The notes under the pieces are model-generated. The model ran no database searches, was not told where the DNA came from, and saw only the letters and a list, made by a program, of their open reading frames with translations. Made by a program: the position numbers and the translations under genes. From NCBI GenBank assembly GCA_026396675.1, contig JAPLWI010000013.1, positions 1,218 to 65,217 on the forward strand: DNA of 64,000 bases, in the 5' to 3' direction. Position 1 is the first letter of the stretch. Every line of letters starts with the position of its first letter. Shown piece after piece: positions 4,197 to 52,054 of this stretch. This DNA comes from Candidatus Kaiserbacteria bacterium. Its GTDB lineage: Bacteria > Patescibacteriota > Minisyncoccia > Phycocordibacterales > Phycocordibacteraceae.

Positions 4197-4784
4197 ATGT
4201 TCTTTGGATGGTTAATTGCTCTAGAAACAGAAGTGGCGTTAATGGGATTGTTTGCGTGGAGTGGTAATCTCTTCACTGAAAAACAGATGTTGAAACACCA
4301 CGGACCACAAGGGCTTGTATTCATTTACCACGGTGGGATATGGGGAGACGTCATCATCATTTCGCCGCTCGTTGCTGCTATCGTAGAGTGTTGCGGATCA
4401 GAATGGTTGTTGCGACAAAAGATCACAGCTCTTATTGTAGGGTTCGTAGCAAGTGTAGCGATGCACCAAATGTATACGAAAATTCCATGGCCCGACGCTC
4501 TCATGAATACCAAAGCGTGGATAATACACATGCTATACACGGCTCTCGCAATCGCAGCATTCTTTCTTTATTTTATTTGGGCACCCTTCACACCGTGGAT
4601 GTGGTTAGTGTCTGGTTTCATCGTCATACACGTTGCCGTTGGGAATCATGCAGTACTTGGCCTTCTACACATATCGCGTTATCCGGGGAAGCCATTCACA
4701 GATTCGTTCTTCTGGATCCAGATATCTGGTGTCGCGGTACTTACCTTTGGAGTTACTACTTGCCGGGCGTTGAAATTCTGGTAG
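4197..4784 (+). CDS. Hypothetical polytopic membrane protein
   Basis: Long ORF with 5-6 hydrophobic segments. No recognisable motif. Confidence 0.45.
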   Translation: MFFGWLIALETEVALMGLFAWSGNLFTEKQMLKHHGPQGLVFIYHGGIWGDVIIISPLVAAIVECCGSEWLLRQKITALIVGFVASVAMHQMYTKIPWPDALMNTKAWIIHMLYTALAIAAFFLYFIWAPFTPWMWLVSGFIVIHVAVGNHAVLGLLHISRYPGKPFTDSFFWIQISGVAVLTFGVTTCRALKFW

Positions 4785-4859
4785 CCAACAGGAACCGTAC
4801 AGGCGTTATACGCTTGCACGGTTCTTTCATTTTATATATCGGCGTGTCATTATTAGCAT

Positions 4860-5609
4860 ATGCGAATCAGTTTTGTAATTCCCGCTTACAATGAGGAACA
4901 GCGCCTGCCGAGTTGCTTGTCTTCAGTTGAACGCGAACTCGCACGCACTTCATGTGATGCGGAAGTCATTGTGGTAAATAATGCGAGCACTGATTGTACT
5001 GGCGAAGTCGCAAGATCATTTAATTGGGTAAAGGTCGTTAACGAACCAAACAAAGGGCTCGTACGCGCGCGCCACGCCGGATTTACCGTATCAACAGGAG
5101 ACATCATCGCGAACATTGATTCCGATACGATAATGCCGGAAGGATGGCTTGAAACCGTGATAAATGAGTTTAAACACGACGAGCATCTCGCGGCGCTTAG
5201 CGGACCATACATTTATTACGACCTTTCAATATTGCATCGTTTTTTAACAAAGTTTTTTTATTTTTTAGGGTATATATCTCATTTGATAAATCACCACATT
5301 CTGCATTCAGGCGCGATGCTTCAGGGAGGAAATTTTATCGTGCGTCGTTCACATCTTGAACAGATTGGCGGATTTGATACCTCTATTGAATTTTATGGTG
5401 AAGATACCGATATTGCACGACGCATCAGTAAAGTTGGGAGGGTGAAGTGGACATTCAAATTACCTATGTACACATCTGGTAGACGGCTCGCGAAAGAGGG
5501 AACTATGAGAATGGGACTGCGCTATGCGGCAAATTATTTCCACACGCTAATCCTCGGCAAGCCACTTACGGTTGAATACACAGACATACGCGACACCGCC
5601 AAGTATTGA
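4860..5609 (+). CDS. Family 2 glycosyltransferase
   Basis: ISFVIPAYNEEQRLPSCL...VVNNASTDCT...IDSDT motifs. Confidence 0.75.
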   Translation: MRISFVIPAYNEEQRLPSCLSSVERELARTSCDAEVIVVNNASTDCTGEVARSFNWVKVVNEPNKGLVRARHAGFTVSTGDIIANIDSDTIMPEGWLETVINEFKHDEHLAALSGPYIYYDLSILHRFLTKFFYFLGYISHLINHHILHSGAMLQGGNFIVRRSHLEQIGGFDTSIEFYGEDTDIARRISKVGRVKWTFKLPMYTSGRRLAKEGTMRMGLRYAANYFHTLILGKPLTVEYTDIRDTAKY

Positions 5610-5613
5610 TGTT

Positions 5614-6552
5614 TTATTGTTTCTTAATCCACAAATAAATATCTTCAAGCGCCTTAACACCGTCGCCGGCAGCGATATTATTCTGATGATAGAGCTCGTC
5701 TGTGCAGTCGCCGGCGGCCCAAATTCCTTCAATGCTCGTGCGTTGATTGTGTGCGTCCGTTTTTATACGCTTTAAATCGTCAACAGCAACAAGTCCTTCA
5801 GCGAATCCTGTATTCGGAACTACACCAATTTCTACAAAAATACCGGACACGTTACATTCTTTTATTTCCTCTGAATCATTATCTTTATATTTAAAACCAG
5901 TAACGAATCCGCCAGCTGGCGGATCGCCCAGAATCTCAGTCGGTTCGGCATTCGAAATCACGTGCATATTCGGATGTGCGCAGGCCTTAGCAACAGTTAT
6001 CGGATCCGCCTTGAACTCTTTGTTTTTATGGACGAGCGTGACTGACTTCGCGTATGCAAGAAGTTGAAGCGCTGTCTCAAAACCAGCATTGCCGCCACCG
6101 ATGACCGCAACGTCTTGGCCTGAAAACATGGGGCCGTCGCATGAAGCGCAGTAAGTAACACCTTTATTCTCAAATTTCTCCGCGCCGGGGATATCAAGTT
6201 TTCTGCGGCTTGCTCCCGAAGCTACTAAAATTGCTTTCGCAGAAAATTCTTTTCCAGTTTTTGTTTTTGAAATGAATCCAACGTTAATTTTTTCAAGTGA
6301 TTCAACACGTTCGCCTAGTTCAAGCGTTACAAAATCATTTTTTACGGCATCAAGATGCGCACCGAGCGACTTAGCCAAGTCAGCTCCGCTTATCTTCGGT
6401 GTGCCGACCCAATTTTCAATGCCATCTGAAACAACTGATTGCCCACCGATTTCTTCAGCGATGAGAATTGTTTTTAAATGTTTGCGCGCCGCATAAATAC
6501 CCGCGGCAGCGCCTGCCGGCCCCCCGCCGATAATTATTAAGTCATTCATCAC
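5614..6552 (-). CDS. trxB: Thioredoxin-disulfide reductase
   Basis: IIIGGGPAGAAAGIYAAR FAD motif, CASCD redox-active CxxC, GGGNAG NADPH motif, AAGDC. Confidence 0.9.
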   Translation of the reverse strand: MMNDLIIIGGGPAGAAAGIYAARKHLKTILIAEEIGGQSVVSDGIENWVGTPKISGADLAKSLGAHLDAVKNDFVTLELGERVESLEKINVGFISKTKTGKEFSAKAILVASGASRRKLDIPGAEKFENKGVTYCASCDGPMFSGQDVAVIGGGNAGFETALQLLAYAKSVTLVHKNKEFKADPITVAKACAHPNMHVISNAEPTEILGDPPAGGFVTGFKYKDNDSEEIKECNVSGIFVEIGVVPNTGFAEGLVAVDDLKRIKTDAHNQRTSIEGIWAAGDCTDELYHQNNIAAGDGVKALEDIYLWIKKQ

Positions 6553-17056: not shown

Positions 17057-17143
17057 TTCGTATGAATCCCGTTAGAAATCTCGTATATAATGGTCTAATA
17101 CAGACGATGGCGAAAGTCGCTGTTAACTCTAATTTCTAACGGG

Positions 17144-17494
17144 ATGAAAACACTTTTTGAACACATTGAATACGCTAAGGGCAAACCGCATCACATTCGC
17201 AAGCGAATCGCTTTTACTGCAGCAGCGACCGGCGCTGGGCTCGTCGCGCTCGTATGGCTTTTCGGTTCTCTTTCGTCAGGCGTTTTTGCTCTAAAAGGAA
17301 ATTCTTTTGCCGAGAATGCAAGTGGTGTAAACGAGTCCGGGTCTATAGTCGACACAAATTCTAATTCGGAAGGTATCGCTGGTGTCGCCGCGGTCCTTTC
17401 GTCTGACCAGACACCGGCTCATATTGAAATTGTTGACACATCAATTTTGACCTCCTCGGGTAAGCAGGCCGAAGAGAAAATAATTCCGTTTTAA
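17144..17494 (+). CDS. Hypothetical membrane-anchored protein
   Basis: ORF with one N-terminal TM segment, immediately upstream of gyrA. Confidence 0.45.
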
Positions 17495-31265: not shown

Positions 31266-32567
31266 TTACACGGTTTCAGCTTCGCGTTCGATGGCGAGCA
31301 GACGTTCATATTTCACTATACGTTCACGCTGGCCGAATCCGCCGGCTTTAAGGCCGTGGGCGCCGATGCCGTAGGCGAAGTCCGCGATGAAAGTGTCCAT
31401 CGTCTCTCCCGAGCGATGCGAAGCGACGGCCTTAAAGCCGGCGGTATAAGTCGCTTGCACCGCTTCAAGCGCTTCTTTCACAGTACCGATTTGATTCGGT
31501 TTTATGAGCACCGCATTTATTTCTTTATTTTTTGCTGCGTCTTTAATGCGCGCCGGGCTTGTAACCGTGAGATCGTCGCCGATAATGAGAATGTTGTTGT
31601 CGAGAGATGCGGTTAGTCGTGCAAAATCATCGCCGGCATTTTCAGTAAACGGATCTTCAATACTATGAATGGGGAATTGCGAAGCGAGGCCTTGATACAC
31701 ATTTGTAAGCTCGTCGGGCGAGTATGATTTTCCGAGCAATTCGTATGCGCCGTTTTTGAATAATTCACTCGCGGCGGCATCAATCGCAATCTTTACATTC
31801 GGGAATTCTTTTATGAGTTCGGTAAGAATTTCAAACGGTTGTTCAAGCGTCTCAAATATCGGTGCATAGCCGCCTTCGTCGCCCATCGGCGTGCCGTCTC
31901 CAAGTCGCTCTCCAAGCTTTGCGAATAATTCTTGTGCGATAGGAAAGGCAGCGCTTGTTTTTCCTTCAACAACCAAAAGATATTCTTGAAAAGGAAGTTT
32001 GAAATCAGCGTGCCCAGACACCAAATTTGGCATTGTCCCTTCGGGACGCGCTTCGCGCGATGCCAAAATTGGTGTATGGGCGTGTGCGCCGCCATTCATA
32101 ACGTTGACGAATAATCGCGGTGCAGACGACGTCGTTCCCGCGCGCTTCGCGATAGATTTCCAGGGCGGAATATCTTCAAGCATCGCGGAAAGCCGCATCG
32201 CGGCGATAGAGACCGAGAGAATTGCGTTGGCGCCAAGCCGTGACTTATCAGGCGTACCGTCAAGATTGATAAGAAATGAATCAAGTTCATCAAGCGAATT
32301 GAAATCGTGGTCTATAAGTGCATTCGCAATCTCGCCATTTACATTTTCGATTGCGCGCGCAACACTGCCGTCAGAGTCGCGCAATTCGCACGCTTCATAC
32401 GAGCCCGTACTTTTACCCGATGGTACAGATGCCGTAGCGCGCAACAAGGTTCGACCTTGAGGATTCGGATTTAAGGTCGAACCTTGTTGCGCGTCGAGTG
32501 TCGTTTCTACCGTCGGTTTCCCGCGTGTGTCCAGAATTGATCGTGCCTCTATGTGGTCAATGCGCAT
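31266..32567 (-). CDS. eno: Enolase
   Basis: ARSILDTRGKPTVE, SHRSGETMDTFIADFAYG, GANAILSVS. Start at the internal Met (MRIDHIEA). Confidence 0.9.
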   Translation of the reverse strand: MRIDHIEARSILDTRGKPTVETTLDAQQGSTLNPNPQGRTLLRATASVPSGKSTGSYEACELRDSDGSVARAIENVNGEIANALIDHDFNSLDELDSFLINLDGTPDKSRLGANAILSVSIAAMRLSAMLEDIPPWKSIAKRAGTTSSAPRLFVNVMNGGAHAHTPILASREARPEGTMPNLVSGHADFKLPFQEYLLVVEGKTSAAFPIAQELFAKLGERLGDGTPMGDEGGYAPIFETLEQPFEILTELIKEFPNVKIAIDAAASELFKNGAYELLGKSYSPDELTNVYQGLASQFPIHSIEDPFTENAGDDFARLTASLDNNILIIGDDLTVTSPARIKDAAKNKEINAVLIKPNQIGTVKEALEAVQATYTAGFKAVASHRSGETMDTFIADFAYGIGAHGLKAGGFGQRERIVKYERLLAIEREAETV

Positions 32568-32571
32568 ATTT

Positions 32572-34959
32572 CTATTTGCCGAGCCTTTCCTCAACCTCGG
32601 CGATATTTTCGAGCGTTTTCACTACCGAATCAGGATTGAGCGACATGCTCGGAATACCTTCCTTGACGAGAAATTCTGCGAAATCAGGAAGATCAGAAGG
32701 TCCTTGTCCGCAAATACCAAGATATTTTCCGCGCGCCGTGCACTTCCGAATAATCATACTAATCAGCGCACGCACTGACTCGTCATTTTCATTTCCGATA
32801 TGCGTTACGATACCGGAATCACGATCAAGCCCGAGTGTGAGTTGTGTGAGGTCATTACTCCCGATAGACATACCGTCAAAGAGATCCAAAAATTCTTCGG
32901 CGAGAATAACGTTGGACGGTATTTCACACATCATGTAAATCGGTTTTTTGATGCCGTTCTTTTTCATAATGCCGAGCACCTGTTCCGCTTCTGCCACTGT
33001 GCGACAGAAAGGAACCATAGGGATAACATTATTTAGTCCCATTTCTTCCCTGACTTTTACGAGTGCGCGGCATTCAAGCACAAAAGCATCTTTAAACTTT
33101 GGATCGTAATATCGAGACGCGCCTCGCCACCCAATCATCGGATTTTCTTCTTTTGGCTCGTATGCCTCGCCACCGAGCAGTGTCGCATACTCATTTGTCT
33201 TGAAGTCGGAAAAGCGCACAATCACAGGTCGCGGTGCAAATGCTGCAGCAATCTTCGCGATGCCGTAGGCAAGATTATCAATATAGAAGTCAACAGGATT
33301 ATTCCATCCTGTAATTTTTTTCTGGATAGCAGTGCGCAGTTTCGGCGCAAGTTTTTTGAAATGGAGAATCGCGAGCGGATGAATGCCGATGGCAGACGCG
33401 ATGATAAACTCCTCACGTGCGAGCCCGACGCCTTTTACTGGCAGAAATGAATTTTCAAAGGCGATGTCAGGCGAGGCGATATTCACCATAATTTTCGTCT
33501 TGGTCTTCGGTAGGGTACCGATGTCGTGTTCTCGCGTAGTTATTTTCGCTTTACCTGCCGTAATGATGCCGACACTTCCCGTCGTGTCCACAGTGACGAC
33601 CGTTCCCGTTTTTAATACCTTTGTCGCATTGCCAGTTCCGACAACCGCCGGCAGTCCGAATTCGCGCGAGACAATAGCTGCATGGCTCGTGCGCCCTCCG
33701 TGATCTGTAATGATTGCGGACGCCATTTTCATAATCTGTTCCCAATCGGGATCGGTCATTGTCGTCACCAATATTTCGCCCTCTTTAAATTCTTTTATCT
33801 GCTTTGGGCTCATGATTATGCGTGTTGTCCCTGTTGTAACCTTCGAGCCGACCGATATTCCCTGTACAAGCGTCTTCCCTTGACCTGTCACTTTATATTC
33901 AACGAGCTTCGAGAAGTCGCGTACGGCCTGCACCGTCTCGGGCCGCGCCTGCACGATGTAGAGTTCATTCGTCTTACCGTCGCGCGCCCATTCCATATCC
34001 ATCGGCATCCACGCCTTCGCTCGTTCGGAATAATGCTTTTCAATAAGCGCGCCCCAGCGTGCGAGCTCCACAACTTCTTCTTCAGAAAGGACGAAACGAT
34101 TTTGTTCTGTTGTGCTCGTTTTTACCACCTTGGTTTGTATGACGCCCATTTTCCCATGTGCATAGAGCATTTTCTTATTCTTCACGCCGAGTGTTTTGCT
34201 GATAATCGGATTTTTCGCTGTGCCGATTTTTGATTTCATCACGAGATGTTCATCGGGAGTCACATGACCTTGTACAATCATTTCGCCAAGACCCCACACG
34301 GAATTAATAATTACCAAATCGCGGAATCCGCTTTCAGTATCAACGGTAAACATAATGCCCGATGCACCGAGGTCGCTACGCACCATTTTCTGCACGCCGA
34401 CCGAAAGGGCAACCTTCGTGTGGGCGAATCCTTTATCGGTACGATATGAGATAGCGCGGTCGGTGAAGAGTGATGCCATTGCCCACGTCACTGCTCGAGA
34501 GACATCCCTTGTTCCGCGAATATTCAAATAGGTCTCGTGCTCACCGGCAAAAGAGGCGCCGGCGAGATCTTCGGTGGTCGCGCTCGAACGCACGGCGACA
34601 TCGACATTCTTTCCATACTGCTTCTCCATCTGTGCATATGCTCTCGCAATTTCTTTTCCCAAATCGGCTGGAAACGCGGCGGTGCGGATGGCATCGCGTA
34701 TTAATTTCGCGCGGCGCGAGAGCTCTGGTAAGTTTTTCGTATTCAATCCATCAAGCGTTTTAGAAATAAACGAATCAAGGCCGGTTTGTTTTAAAAAGTA
34801 GTAATAAGCTGCGGCAGTGACACAAAACCCATCGGGTACGCGCACTCCCTGCGGCACCACAGAACGAATCATCTCCCCGAGCGATGCATTCTTTCCGCCG
34901 ACCTGCGGGACATCATCCATACCGATGTCGTGCATCCAAAGAATGTAAGGGGAAGTCAT
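32572..34959 (-). CDS. ppsA: Phosphoenolpyruvate synthase (pyruvate, water dikinase)
   Basis: VGGKNASLGEM N-terminus, phosphohistidine region GGRTSHAAIVSREFGLPAVVG, C-terminal PEP-utilising domain. Confidence 0.85.
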   Translation of the reverse strand: MTSPYILWMHDIGMDDVPQVGGKNASLGEMIRSVVPQGVRVPDGFCVTAAAYYYFLKQTGLDSFISKTLDGLNTKNLPELSRRAKLIRDAIRTAAFPADLGKEIARAYAQMEKQYGKNVDVAVRSSATTEDLAGASFAGEHETYLNIRGTRDVSRAVTWAMASLFTDRAISYRTDKGFAHTKVALSVGVQKMVRSDLGASGIMFTVDTESGFRDLVIINSVWGLGEMIVQGHVTPDEHLVMKSKIGTAKNPIISKTLGVKNKKMLYAHGKMGVIQTKVVKTSTTEQNRFVLSEEEVVELARWGALIEKHYSERAKAWMPMDMEWARDGKTNELYIVQARPETVQAVRDFSKLVEYKVTGQGKTLVQGISVGSKVTTGTTRIIMSPKQIKEFKEGEILVTTMTDPDWEQIMKMASAIITDHGGRTSHAAIVSREFGLPAVVGTGNATKVLKTGTVVTVDTTGSVGIITAGKAKITTREHDIGTLPKTKTKIMVNIASPDIAFENSFLPVKGVGLAREEFIIASAIGIHPLAILHFKKLAPKLRTAIQKKITGWNNPVDFYIDNLAYGIAKIAAAFAPRPVIVRFSDFKTNEYATLLGGEAYEPKEENPMIGWRGASRYYDPKFKDAFVLECRALVKVREEMGLNNVIPMVPFCRTVAEAEQVLGIMKKNGIKKPIYMMCEIPSNVILAEEFLDLFDGMSIGSNDLTQLTLGLDRDSGIVTHIGNENDESVRALISMIIRKCTARGKYLGICGQGPSDLPDFAEFLVKEGIPSMSLNPDSVVKTLENIAEVEERLGK

Positions 34960-50436: not shown

Positions 50437-50997
50437 ATGCCACCAGAAGAAAATTCTGTTCCTGAACCGGCTCCTGCTCCTGTAGAAGCGACTCCAGCTC
50501 CGGATTCGACAAGCTCACCGCAGGCCGAAACGGATCCCGCCATCGCTGAAGCTATGGCGGGCACGCAACCTGCAACCACAACGGGTCAAATACCACCAAA
50601 TGACCCGTTGCCTCCGGTATCTGACCCGATTCCGTCTGCTCAACCCGCTCCCGAGCCGCCGTCCTCGGCGGCTCCAGCACAAACCGGCATTCTGCACACA
50701 GCCCCCTCCGTCGCTAAAGCTATGGAGGGCACGCGCGATCTGCTCGTGAAAGCCCGCGTAAGTATTCAAGACCGGAAACGAAAGAAGCGAGACAAGATTA
50801 TGGAAGCACTGACGAAGAAAAACCCTACTTCGCTAAAGCTACGAAGGGCAGGCGAAATCACCAACGACGAAGTGGAAAAACTTTTGCATGTCTCTGATGC
50901 AACAGCGGAAAGGTATCTCGCAACACTCGTGAAAGAAGGCAAAATTAAACAAGACAGAAGAACCGGAGCGGGCGTAAGTTATTCAAGAGCGCCCTGA
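50437..50997 (+). CDS. Pro-rich protein with C-terminal winged-helix-like domain
   Basis: Low-complexity PAPE-rich N-terminal half. The C-terminal ~60 aa resembles a DNA-binding wHTH. Confidence 0.4.
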   Translation: MPPEENSVPEPAPAPVEATPAPDSTSSPQAETDPAIAEAMAGTQPATTTGQIPPNDPLPPVSDPIPSAQPAPEPPSSAAPAQTGILHTAPSVAKAMEGTRDLLVKARVSIQDRKRKKRDKIMEALTKKNPTSLKLRRAGEITNDEVEKLLHVSDATAERYLATLVKEGKIKQDRRTGAGVSYSRAP

Positions 50998-51015
50998 GCG
51001 CCCTAGAAAGTTTTT

Positions 51016-51087
51016 GCCCTCGTAAGCTAACGGATAAACTGCCTCGATTCTAGCGAGGACTTGGGAGTTCGAATCTTCCCGAGGGCT
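51016..51087 (+). tRNA. tRNA-Arg (anticodon TCT)
   Basis: Acceptor GCCCTCG/CGAGGGC, anticodon stem CCTCG/CGAGG with loop ATTCTAG, T-loop TTCGAAT. One D-stem mismatch. Confidence 0.6.
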
Positions 51088-51149
51088 GGATTTCTTATGC
51101 AATGGACAAGCTAATCTAGCGGAAAAATAGCCAGAGACCGCTGTGCATT

Positions 51150-51303
51150 GAACGGGTCATTTCCTCCTATATGATCCGTTCCTCGGAGGAAATGACCCGT
51201 TCCCCGAGCCCTGCCGCTCCATTCCTTTTCAAAAAATCCTCCCCCGCCAAAAAAACAAAGCATAGAGAGCGGCAGGGCTCGGGGCCGCGCGTAATCGCGC
51301 GGC
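51150..51303. repeat. Stacked perfect inverted repeats: 18-bp IR with 17-nt loop, 18-bp IR with 47-nt spacer, 8-bp GC hairpin
   Basis: GAACGGGTCATTTCCTCC/GGAGGAAATGACCCGTTC; CCCCGAGCCCTGCCGCTC/GAGCGGCAGGGCTCGGGG; CCGCGCG-TAAT-CGCGCGG. Confidence 0.7.
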
Positions 51304-51442
51304 GAGCGCCGAGTCCGCGAGGCGCGAGAAGGTGTGTTAGTTTGTTGGATTTTGTGTAAAATAGGTTCTAGCGTGCTTTAATAGAGACTCCAGAATCAGT
51401 TATCAACATACGACCAATTTTCAAATAGAAATTGGTCTGCAT

Positions 51443-51910
51443 TTGCAATATCATATATGCATGAACCCGAAAAAACTGCGGACAAAGTGTCTTATGTGCG
51501 GCAAAGAACCTGCCAGAACTGGTTACAAATATTGTAGCAACACATGTCAGCACGAATATCAGTATTATGCTTACATAAAACGCTGGAAAGAAGGCAAAGA
51601 AATTGGCTTAATTAACATTGGAGTAGTGTCTGGGCATGTTAAAAGATATTTGCGAGAAAAATTTGGGAATAGATGTTGTTTGTGTGATTGGTCTAAGATA
51701 AATTCAAAAACGGGGAAGGTGCCACTTGTCGCAGATCATATTGATGGGAACTGGAAGAATAACTCTGAGAAGAATCTTCGTCTTATTTGTCCTAACTGTG
51801 ACTCGCTTACATCGACATATGCTGCTCTGAATAAAGGAAATGGACGAACAGGACGAGCGCTTAGTAGAAGAGTTCTTTCTGCGCGATTATTTAAATCCGG
51901 AAGAATATGA
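51443..51910 (+). CDS. HNH endonuclease with N-terminal zinc ribbon
   Basis: CLMCG...C..C N-terminus; VADHIDGNWKNNSEKNLRLICPNCD HNH motif. Confidence 0.7.
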   Translation: MQYHICMNPKKLRTKCLMCGKEPARTGYKYCSNTCQHEYQYYAYIKRWKEGKEIGLINIGVVSGHVKRYLREKFGNRCCLCDWSKINSKTGKVPLVADHIDGNWKNNSEKNLRLICPNCDSLTSTYAALNKGNGRTGRALSRRVLSARLFKSGRI

Positions 51911-51930
51911 TATGTTTCTCAATATCATTT

Positions 51931-52003
51931 GCCGGGGTAGCTCAGTTGGTAGAGCAATGGTATCGTAAACCATAGGTCGCGAGTCCGAATCTCGCCCCCG
52001 GCT
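51931..52003 (+). tRNA. tRNA-Thr (anticodon CGT)
   Basis: GCCGGGG acceptor, anticodon stem ATGGT/ACCAT with loop ATCGTAA, T-loop TCCGAAT. Followed by a bidirectional terminator hairpin. Confidence 0.8.
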
Positions 52004-52054
52004 CAATAAAAAAGTAAAGGCCGCTGGTGTTTTAATTCCAGCGGCCCATGGCAA

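Follow-up and report, generated by a model that had tools for sequence, protein, structure and literature searches.

A dispersed palindromic element with a putative outward promoter upstream of an HNH nuclease/tRNA-Thr pair in a Kaiserbacteria genome

Introduction

The described systems closest to the element reported here are the repetitive extragenic palindromes and bacterial interspersed mosaic elements (REP/BIME, with the REPINs) of Proteobacteria, the promoter-carrying miniature inverted-repeat transposable elements (MITEs; Correia CREE of Neisseria, ERIC/IRU and RUP/BOX), and the attC sites of integrons. The small, densely packed genomes of the Candidate Phyla Radiation (CPR, or Patescibacteria) are generally portrayed as containing few repeats and little regulatory DNA. 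Here, we analyzed a 64,000-nt stretch (the window) of contig JAPLWI010000013.1 of a Candidatus Kaiserbacteria bacterium (assembly GCA_026396675.1, positions 1,218 to 65,217, forward strand), in which a repeat-dense island of 355 nt (51088-51442) lies between a tRNA-Arg gene and a gene for an HNH nuclease, itself followed by tRNA-Thr. The island is composed of two parts, a repeat element (51088-51398) and the promoter region of the HNH gene (51399-51460). Our comparisons support well the conclusion that the former is one full-length copy (311 nt) of a dispersed family of modular, palindromic, non-coding elements, whose hosts are CPR bacteria of the Parcubacteria/Paceibacteria type.

Like REP/BIME, these elements are extragenic, non-coding mosaics in which palindromic modules occur in variable combinations; they are dispersed, their copies are closer within than between genomes, they seem to act at the DNA level, and inverted pairs are seen. 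Unlike REP/BIME, the unit is far larger (about 300 nt), has a fixed polarity and ends in a conserved non-palindromic motif of 45 nt (hereafter M), and it appears to occur at about one copy per 80 kb where present, as opposed to hundreds per genome, in a CPR host; no RAYT-type transposase turned up, and no search aimed at RAYT was made. With the promoter-carrying MITEs the element shares a small, non-autonomous, hairpin-forming body, an intergenic position near gene starts and ends, and a capacity, here inferred, to supply outward promoters and alter the expression of neighbors. It differs from them in lacking terminal inverted repeats and target-site duplications and in its asymmetric ends, with one conserved terminus and an internal big-loop hairpin. 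The attC sites, in turn, are likewise palindromic, conserved in structure over sequence and variable in their loops, and they too lie near a site-specific recombinase and flank gene-sized cargo. However, the recombinase associated with the present family is a large serine enzyme and not the tyrosine recombinase IntI, the pairs are inverted rather than arranged in direct arrays, and the element is three times longer than a typical attC. In addition, the attC core sites RYYYAAC/GTTRRRY are absent, as read from the sequence, from the arms of the two long inverted repeats of the window copy (IR2, CCCCGAG...CTCGGGG; IR1, GAACGGG...CCCGTTC).

Results and Discussion

A full-length copy of a dispersed element family

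An earlier reading made from the sequence alone (the sequence-only reading) had recognized four dyads in the island. The element and its left border comprise the following features:

51016-51087, plus strand: tRNA-Arg(TCT), called by ARAGORN and scoring 44 bits with the Rfam tRNA model; left border of the element.
51088-51149, plus strand: 5' segment of the element, with the blocks GCAATGGAC, CTAGCGGAAA and AGCCAGAGACC, found in the same order in L180 and L197.
51150-51167 / 51185-51202, no strand assigned: IR1, an 18-bp perfect hairpin with a 17-nt loop; 'GAACGGnTCA' module.
51202-51219 / 51267-51284, no strand assigned: IR2, a perfect stem of 18 bp around a C/A-rich 47-nt loop.
51285-51302, no strand assigned: GC hairpin ccgcgcg-taat-cgcgcgg, read from the sequence.
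51306-51325, no strand assigned: a fifth hairpin, gcgcc-GAGTCCGCGA-ggcgc, with a 10-nt loop, added here to the four dyads.
51343-51398, plus strand: motif M, promoter-like, with the core TAAAATAGGTTCTAGCG-N13-ACTC at 51357-51390; the 3' boundary of the element is at about 51398.

BLAST comparison of the island with 80 HNH loci revealed a conserved block (51343-51398) in L009 (two copies), L064, L047 and L020, where L and a number designate a contig or locus outside the window. A search pattern derived from the core of this block (TAAARTAGGTTCNAGCG-N13-ACTC, about 20 specified bases) matched at least 120 metagenomic contigs, many of whose names point to groundwater data sets. Alignment of 139 M instances showed that homology ends abruptly after ACTC(ca) and carries on upstream into GC-rich hairpins. 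In the two-copy contigs L105, L124, L129, L158 and L211, the copies are near-identical over 250-330 nt upstream of M and over 0 nt downstream. Delimited elements measure 285-323 nt, compared with 311 nt for the window copy, and contigs carry up to three copies in differing gene contexts.

Homologs of the whole island were identified in L180 (82% identity over 262 nt) and L197 (70% identity over 339 nt, with BLAST homology from 51079), and a 5'-truncated homolog in L098 (81% over 139 nt). L197 represents the orthologous locus, where a truncated helix-turn-helix (HTH) gene is followed by the element, embedded in about 650 nt of non-coding DNA, and then by the HNH gene, tRNA-Thr, RF2 and FtsE. 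L180 shares the left flank only (the HTH ortholog) and diverges exactly after M. The element has thus been kept at this locus in related Kaiserbacteria while also marking a rearrangement breakpoint. The sequence-only reading had proposed that conservation of sequence and synteny across distant relatives would favor a housekeeping RNA; synteny is indeed kept in the close relatives L197 and L180, but elsewhere the surroundings of the element are unrelated, as in L098 and on the right side of L180.

Among about 81 HNH loci that were not selected for M (80 from GTDB and the window), M lies upstream of the gene in four, namely the window, L009, L047 and L064; three further HNH loci with M upstream (L114, L177 and L197) come from the M-selected metagenome set. 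No second copy was found within the window, whether the arms, the whole island or four family copies from other contigs were used as the query. An origin from a phage or plasmid was rejected, as the M pattern had no match in viral contigs and blastn of the island against phages and plasmids found nothing. Matches to GAGTCCGCGAG and GGAGCGTAC in L039 and L009 were dismissed as coincidence, the former falling within the RF2 gene and the latter within an FMN riboswitch. The sequence of M did not occur in the full-text literature searched, a literature search on CPR repeats and promoters returned nothing relevant on CPR intergenic repeats, and the family appears to be undescribed.

The repeats of the island are far beyond chance. 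Both 18-bp perfect inverted repeats, the GC hairpin and an AT-rich dyad were found as reported by the sequence-only reading, except that the coordinates given for the dyad (51409-51434) are a few bases off, its actual position being 51412-51437. The arms of IR1 and IR2 in the window are perfect and contain no G-U pairs; shuffles of the window lead one to expect 0.04 and 0.00 occurrences of the arm sequences at up to three mismatches, and they were observed twice, as the two arms. The loop of IR1 carries the previously noticed partial copy of its own stem, as ATATGATCCGTTCCTC matches the stem sequence AAATGACCCGTTCCCC (3' arm) at 81%. The 355-nt island folds at -147.2 kcal/mol on the plus strand, compared with -100 +/- 5 for shuffles (z = -9.1), and its minus strand gives z = -7.9. 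Strictly, the island is not free of open reading frames (ORFs), as had been claimed, since mechanical ORFs of 50 and 62 aa cross it, but neither is supported as a gene.

Hairpins conserved as structures

A long stem of the IR2 type with a loop of about 45-60 nt marks the family, and its structure is kept while its sequence changes completely. In an alignment of 21 sequences, all eight core pairs of IR2 vary on both sides. When 15 pairs were counted, 94% of the cells proved to be paired, compared with 83% after shuffling, and none of 500 shuffles reached the observed values; sliding the partner columns lowers pairing to 34-56%. An alignment-free count led to the same picture, in that 52 of 98 unique copies and 0 of 98 shuffled ones contain a hairpin whose stem has 12 bp or more and whose loop has 25-70 nt. 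These big-loop hairpins are situated 28-195 nt (mostly 50-160 nt) before M and use 33 distinct stem sequences, such as CCCCGAGCCCTGCCGCTC, AACCCCGAAAGAAAAACAC, GCAGAAAAATTTTCTTT and CACCAAAGAAAAGTTTTGTTTTC. The loop sequence of IR2 itself is recognizable in 14-18 other copies.

The other modules behave similarly. In L180 and L197, IR1 shows compensatory changes (GGGTC/GACCC to GGCTC/GAGCC, and CCTCC/GGAGG to CTTCCC/GGGAAG), and the partial stem copy in its loop changes in step with the stem; the shorter 'GAACGGnTCA' module was found in six contigs (L102, L110, L158, L161, L154 and L097). Other copies have a GC tetraloop hairpin at the corresponding place (GACGCGCGG-TACT-CCGCGCG, for instance), and the GAGTCCGCGA loop is carried by differing stems in L047, L051 (twice), L098, L180 and L197. 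Among copies, the hairpin modules recur in varied combinations and orders.

The element bodies fold alike on both strands (mean -93.0 and -92.4 kcal/mol, Wilcoxon p = 0.67, n = 98), and within the IR2 core, G-U pairs (about 10) are similarly frequent to C-A pairs (about 7). Together with the perfect arms of the window copy, the strand-symmetric folding and the comparable G-U and C-A counts favor DNA-level palindromes over strand-specific RNA structures.

Motif M as a candidate outward promoter

Two features of M were not forced by the search pattern, namely an ATTTTTG before TAAArT, which is at least 80% conserved across the 139 instances, and a TGn preceding the invariant TAAArT in at least 80% of copies, which reads as an extended -10 element. 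By inspection, most copies of M read either TGnTAAAGT or TTGmTA-N18-TACAAT, corresponding to subfamilies; the window copy has GTGTAAAAT, in which the TG is one base out of register. The position of M relative to its neighbors is also promoter-like. It ends 3-15 nt before start codons (3-8 nt before RF2 in L125 and L200) and 4-7 nt before the 5' ends of tRNAs in L117, L154, L183 and L189, and in eight contigs without an HNH gene it stands 7-90 nt upstream of tRNA-Thr(CGT). For the 99 copies that have a downstream neighbor within 400 nt, crude ORF calls placed 67 neighbors in co-orientation and 32 in anti-orientation. We infer that M is an outward-facing promoter whose start site would be near the 3' edge of the element.

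An origin of M as a decayed 3' half of a tRNA was considered and rejected. The stretch GGTTCGAG...CTCCA resembles such a half by inspection only; the tRNA model gives it no support, and M alone produced no tRNA-model hit even when truncated matches were allowed.

A portable intergenic cassette and its alternatives

We regard it as probable, with moderate confidence, that the element serves as a portable cassette of intergenic DNA, similar to BIMEs and MITEs and equipped with an outward promoter, and is neither a terminator nor a known non-coding RNA (ncRNA); its functional role as such a cassette is moderately likely. The element itself is a mosaic of the IR1 module, the IR2 big-loop stem, the GC tetraloop hairpin, the GAGTCCGCGA-loop hairpin and a terminal M of about 45 nt, almost identical among the copies of one genome and differing in its hairpin sequences between genomes. 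According to our model, the palindromes would act in DNA, as cruciforms, single-stranded hairpins or protein-bound dyads, and the element would spread, or be homogenized, by some DNA-level process. M, read as an extended -10 (TGnTAAArT) or as TTGmTA-N18-TACAAT, would initiate transcription near the 3' edge, such that the cassette may keep two neighboring units apart, the upstream one being tRNA-Arg here, and supply transcription into the downstream one. In the window, the latter is the HNH nuclease/tRNA-Thr(CGU) pair, which also has a conserved promoter of its own, flanked by a dyad and leaderless.

A number of observations weigh against this explanation. The copy density is low, with one copy in the 64-kb window and six in some 0.5 Mb of DNA that had not been chosen for the presence of M. 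The covariation of the stems fits an RNA structure equally well. Of the 99 downstream neighbors, 32 are in anti-orientation, and in several of these cases a terminator hairpin and a tRNA of convergent orientation come immediately after M. A consensus promoter scan makes no call on M, whose promoter activity is assigned from position and sequence. The 17-nt TAAArTAGGTTCnAGCG, and AGGTTCnAGCG in particular, is conserved far beyond what an ordinary promoter needs, part of this conservation being imposed by the search pattern. Finally, mobility is deduced from the distribution of copies, since no mobilizing enzyme, terminal inverted repeats or target duplication were found. Comparison of the first 50 nt with the reverse complement of the last 50 in five delimited copies, including that of the window, gave scores that did not exceed those of shuffles (p = 0.07-0.94), and the 15-nt flanks of the same five copies share no direct repeat, as assessed without a strict filled/empty pair. 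The element is, therefore, not a MITE in the strict sense. Of the origins suggested by the sequence-only reading, a MITE-like remnant nevertheless comes closest, as the family is dispersed, multi-copy and non-coding, but the window copy is full-length rather than a remnant and has neither terminal repeats nor a target duplication.

The same hairpins could instead be RNA stems of a multi-copy structured ncRNA gene or cis-acting RNA leader with M as its conserved 3' domain, the RNA being either made alone or co-transcribed with the tRNA and freed by tRNA processing. The strong fold (z = -9.1), the covarying stems with conserved IR2 and GAGTCCGCGA loop sequences, the sharp 3' boundary, and the several copies that lie directly before a terminator hairpin or 4-7 nt from a co-oriented tRNA are all in line with this proposal. 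Nevertheless, we consider it unlikely, given that both strands fold equally stably in the 98 copies, that C-A pairs are about as frequent as G-U pairs in the IR2 core, that perfect 18-bp palindromic arms are unusual for RNA stems, that M shows no conserved pairing, and that no conserved promoter was recognized upstream of the element. Searches of Rfam 15 agree with this judgment. In the window only tRNAs reach the gathering score, relaxing the threshold to E <= 10 adds only chance hits to miRNA hairpins, and neither the element loci of the relatives, some of them searched at a relaxed threshold, nor M alone returned anything matching the island; RNase P RNA, tmRNA, 6S RNA, SRP RNA, the HEARO/IscB omega-RNA and group I introns were accordingly rejected as candidates for the island. 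The structured ncRNA offered as an option by the sequence-only reading is thus disfavored on balance, despite the covariation.

The element may also be viewed as a recombination-site module, or the end of a mobile element, used by large serine recombinases of the CcrB/XisF type, with solo copies being leftover or non-autonomous. Related copies elsewhere often adjoin large serine recombinase genes and tRNA 3' ends, and in about 24 of about 120 contigs such a gene lies 200-470 nt downstream of M or abuts it. Moreover, of the 12 contigs with exactly two copies, 11 have them in inverted, divergent orientation around cargo genes, at distances of 1.8-4.4 kb, and about nine of the two-copy contigs carry the recombinase or its leader just outside one copy. 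Conservation of the hairpin as structure and not as sequence would suit such a site, as would the L180 synteny breakpoint exactly at the end of M. However, the window contains neither a recombinase nor a second copy, most copies of M have no recombinase within reach, and the two-copy contigs are an ascertainment-biased sample. The recombinase gene comes with a separate sigma-70-like promoter and with inverted repeats (about 100 nt) that belong to it, both outside M, and the sites of serine recombinases are normally duplexes of about 50 bp, not 300-nt hairpin mosaics. On this evidence, a role as recombinase site appears improbable. We hold as similarly doubtful the broader conjecture that the elements are structure-specific recombination modules of an unrecognized CPR cassette system, in which a recombinase would invert, capture or exchange the bracketed segment; in that case, each copy would also point a promoter outward, and the window copy would be a solo site now driving the HNH/tRNA-Thr pair. 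The cargo bracketed in two-copy contigs includes a VanX-like protein with Ddl (L105), a radical-SAM enzyme (L129) and a restriction-modification pair. For the window, the suggestion of integration at tRNA-Arg did not hold, as no repeat of the tRNA-Arg 3' end is present at the far border or elsewhere in 50950-51950, no recombinase gene lies close by, and no serine recombinase homolog was found in the window; L051, described below, illustrates what an integration of this kind looks like.

The simplest account would be ordinary, locus-specific regulatory DNA, with terminators or processing signals of tRNA-Arg followed by the HNH promoter and nothing repeated or mobile. The position directly after a tRNA and before a gene fits, the rightmost 60 nt really are a conserved locus-specific promoter, and the island is syntenic in L197. 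Yet the 300-nt unit recurs in many unrelated contexts, with several copies on one contig, and most HNH loci do not have the element (M is upstream in only 4 of the about 81 loci mentioned above). An intrinsic terminator scan of 51088-51442 made no call; as the sequence-only reading had argued, the repeats go beyond the needs of a terminator. The loops measure 17 and 47 nt, and there is no T-run after any stem. We thus find this account, which the dispersed copies already contradict, very improbable.

If the portable cassette is the correct explanation, a CPR intergenic element that fills whole gaps becomes a candidate regulatory unit in front of tRNAs, RF2 and the HNH gene. It would offer a first handle on transcription-unit organization in organisms with almost no transcriptome data, and would mark synteny breakpoints and recombinase-associated islands. 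As the conserved motif M can be searched for directly, it may also serve as an annotation aid.

Recombinase units and tRNA remnants near related copies

The two-copy contigs with inverted, outward-facing and near-identical copies are L105, L119, L124, L125, L129, L153, L158, L163, L176, L207 and L211. In L175 (3057-4925), a CcrB/XisF-like large serine recombinase of 513 aa is bracketed by inverted repeats of about 100 nt, an arrangement that is also present in L105, L158, L186, L170 and L211. This recombinase unit is bordered on one side by the end of M and on the other by a convergent tRNA, whose 3' end faces it, and the C-terminal part of the coding sequence extends across the right-hand repeat. 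L181 may represent an empty site, in which both repeat ends seem to be joined as a simple hairpin.

In L051 (1489-1713), an insert of about 130 nt with two GAGTCCGCGA-loop hairpins comes after tRNA-Thr(GGT), and beyond it lies a 20-nt direct repeat of the tRNA 3' end (CAATTCTCACCGTCGGCTCA); the insert looks like a miniature insertion into the tRNA 3' end. No tRNA was called as a counterpart of tRNA-Arg in L197 or L180. By eye, a decayed tRNA-Arg-like stretch with an internal deletion (..cctagcggaaacagcccgaggcggatgccgagggtgaatctcccatagcaatggac) can be recognized in L180 (7160-7230 and 6900-6935) and L197 (6120-6190 and 6320-6345). Its part CTAGCGGAAAcAGCCCGAGGC recurs in inverted pairs, and also in L126 and L154.

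A conserved promoter region of the HNH gene

Downstream of the element, the following features were assigned:

51399-51460, plus strand: HNH promoter region, with the TTATCAACATACGACC block, the dyad GACCAATTT/AAATTGGTC (51412-51437), a -35-like element and a -10 element.
51412-51420 / 51429-51437: 9-bp AT dyad, GACCAATTT / AAATTGGTC, with 8 nt between the arms.
51461-51910, plus strand: gene for a zinc-ribbon and HNH nuclease of 149 aa (weak match to Pfam HNH_3; homolog alignment).
51931-52004, plus strand: tRNA-Thr(CGT), called by ARAGORN.

The HNH gene is not part of the repeat element but is served by this promoter region, and both flanking tRNA genes, tRNA-Arg(TCT) and tRNA-Thr(CGT), are as the sequence-only reading had stated. 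Its start codon most likely is the ATG at 51461, as judged by homolog alignment, in place of the TTG at 51443 chosen previously. The dyad (GACCA...TGGTC) brackets a -35-like TAGAAA (51426-51431), which is followed after 17 nt by the -10 TATCAT (51449-51454) identified by the promoter scan. Since this -10 ends 6 nt before the ATG, the mRNA would be leaderless.

The arrangement is shared by about 75 loci, whose common architecture is rCrACCA, a -35 (TTGACr), TGGTyG, about 12 nt, a -10 (TATAmT), about 6 nt and ATG. At the promoter position, rACC-N10-20-GGTy occurs in 33 of 68 CPR loci, compared with 0.5 expected from shuffles, and a TAnnnT hexamer ends 4-10 nt before the start codon in 57 of the 68, implying leaderless mRNA there as well. 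The AT dyad, previously grouped with the other repeats into one feature, thus belongs to the HNH gene as a conserved dyad, separate from the element, and is most likely an operator.

A 9-bp direct repeat, CAATATCAT, flanks the HNH ORF (51446-51454 and 51920-51928), with one copy overlapping the -10 and the other ending 2 nt before tRNA-Thr. An HNH cassette with a target duplication was nonetheless rejected, as none of 34 other loci has this repeat, which is peculiar to the window and probably fortuitous.

The HNH nuclease/tRNA-Thr pair

The HNH protein has 1499 homologs, of which the best 120, apart from the protein of the source metagenome-assembled genome (100%), are all 68-76% identical across many CPR lineages. 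In species-representative genomes, 589 of 600 pattern matches encode an HNH relative, and relatives of about 55% identity are found in Oscillatoriales cyanobacteria and in Chloroflexi. At 58 of the 60 loci scanned, drawn from three phyla, tRNA-Thr follows the gene on the same strand, usually at about 10-50 nt and never beyond 210 nt; in the remaining two, the tRNA lies just upstream. In CPR the adjacent tRNA-Thr carries the anticodon CGT, as it does in the single Chloroflexi locus covered by the scan; cyanobacteria have TGT. The upstream neighbor of the gene varies between loci. This near-invariant linkage across three phyla constitutes an unexplained association between a gene and a tRNA, and no description of it in CPR was found in the literature.

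The AlphaFold2 model of the protein (predicted local distance difference test score, pLDDT, 83) displays a generic HNH fold. Its best Foldseek match, to Cas9 HNH domains, has an E-value of 0.02, and no close solved structural relative was found. RNA-guided systems with an HNH domain or of the TIGR-Tas type combine a large effector, bearing a RuvC or Nop domain, with an adjacent guide RNA or array (for TIGR-Tas, PMC12045711). Assignment to IscB/HEARO was rejected, as the protein has only 149 aa, scores 19 bits against the NCBIfam IscB cut-off of 175, and is accompanied by neither a HEARO hit nor a tandem array. TIGR-Tas was rejected on the same small size (zinc ribbon and HNH) and the lack of a tandem array; the Nop domain was not searched for specifically.

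Among known systems, the pair is reminiscent of free-standing HNH homing endonucleases next to tRNA genes (phage T4 SegB type), in that a small HNH gene adjoins a specific tRNA gene and that in some loci (L030, L050 and L062) a duplicated tRNA 5' half is found upstream. In contrast to these, the present protein shows about 70% identity among hundreds of CPR species, more in the manner of a housekeeping or domesticated gene; it is not known to cleave a target, and no phage context was found.

The tRNA-Thr 5' half lies 57-66 nt upstream of the HNH start in L030, L050 and L062, and was seen by eye in L014, L026 and L068. In L050, for instance, GCCGAAGTAGCTCAGTTGGTAGAGCAGCTCACTCGTAA ends at the anticodon loop, directly before the HNH promoter, and an intact tRNA-Thr follows the gene. 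Such an arrangement looks like the signature of a cassette inserted into a tRNA gene; these remnants occur in a minority of loci only (3-5 of 76). A shorter HNH paralog, about 42% identical to the C-terminal half of the protein, was observed in L122, L139 and L190, in the first two of which it is located upstream of tRNA-Leu(TAA). The pairing of HNH and tRNA genes may, therefore, not be limited to tRNA-Thr.

L089 (Logan SRR20698650_155056) matches the window at 99.8% identity as far as the start of tRNA-Thr and is unrelated beyond it. As the acceptor-stem halves of its tRNA do not pair, it was discarded as a chimeric assembly joined through the shared tRNA core. Other Logan contigs of this organism stop inside the same tRNA-Thr.

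Further observations in the window and its relatives

The window contains other long perfect inverted repeats at 32438-32493, 31339-31444 and 17066-17145, and the spacers of its long inverted repeats cluster at 47-68 nt. The first two lie inside the coding sequence of enolase (minus strand, 31266-32594). One has arms of 21 bp and a loop of 14 nt, and in the protein it appears as an in-frame insertion (..AQQGSTLNPNPQGRTLLR..); in the other, a 19-bp repeat with a 68-nt spacer, the arms encode GFKAV and GLKAGG, which we take to be native conserved enolase segments. These repeats suggest some process at the DNA level, template switching for example, by which palindromes are created or perfected in this lineage. 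The third (17066-17145) is a 14-bp perfect inverted repeat (ATCCCGTTAGAAAT) whose 52-nt spacer contains TATATAAT, and it fills the gap before an ORF starting at 17144.

In L180, a reverse transcriptase of 341 aa (4732-5757) with the motifs LGNLTSQ and YTDD, typical of diversity-generating retroelements, is encoded 1.4 kb upstream of the element copy. Two RNAs unrelated to the island were also detected among the relatives, an FMN riboswitch directly after tRNA-Thr in L009 (879-1051, 83 bits) and a group I intron in L170 (10751-10950, 61 bits).

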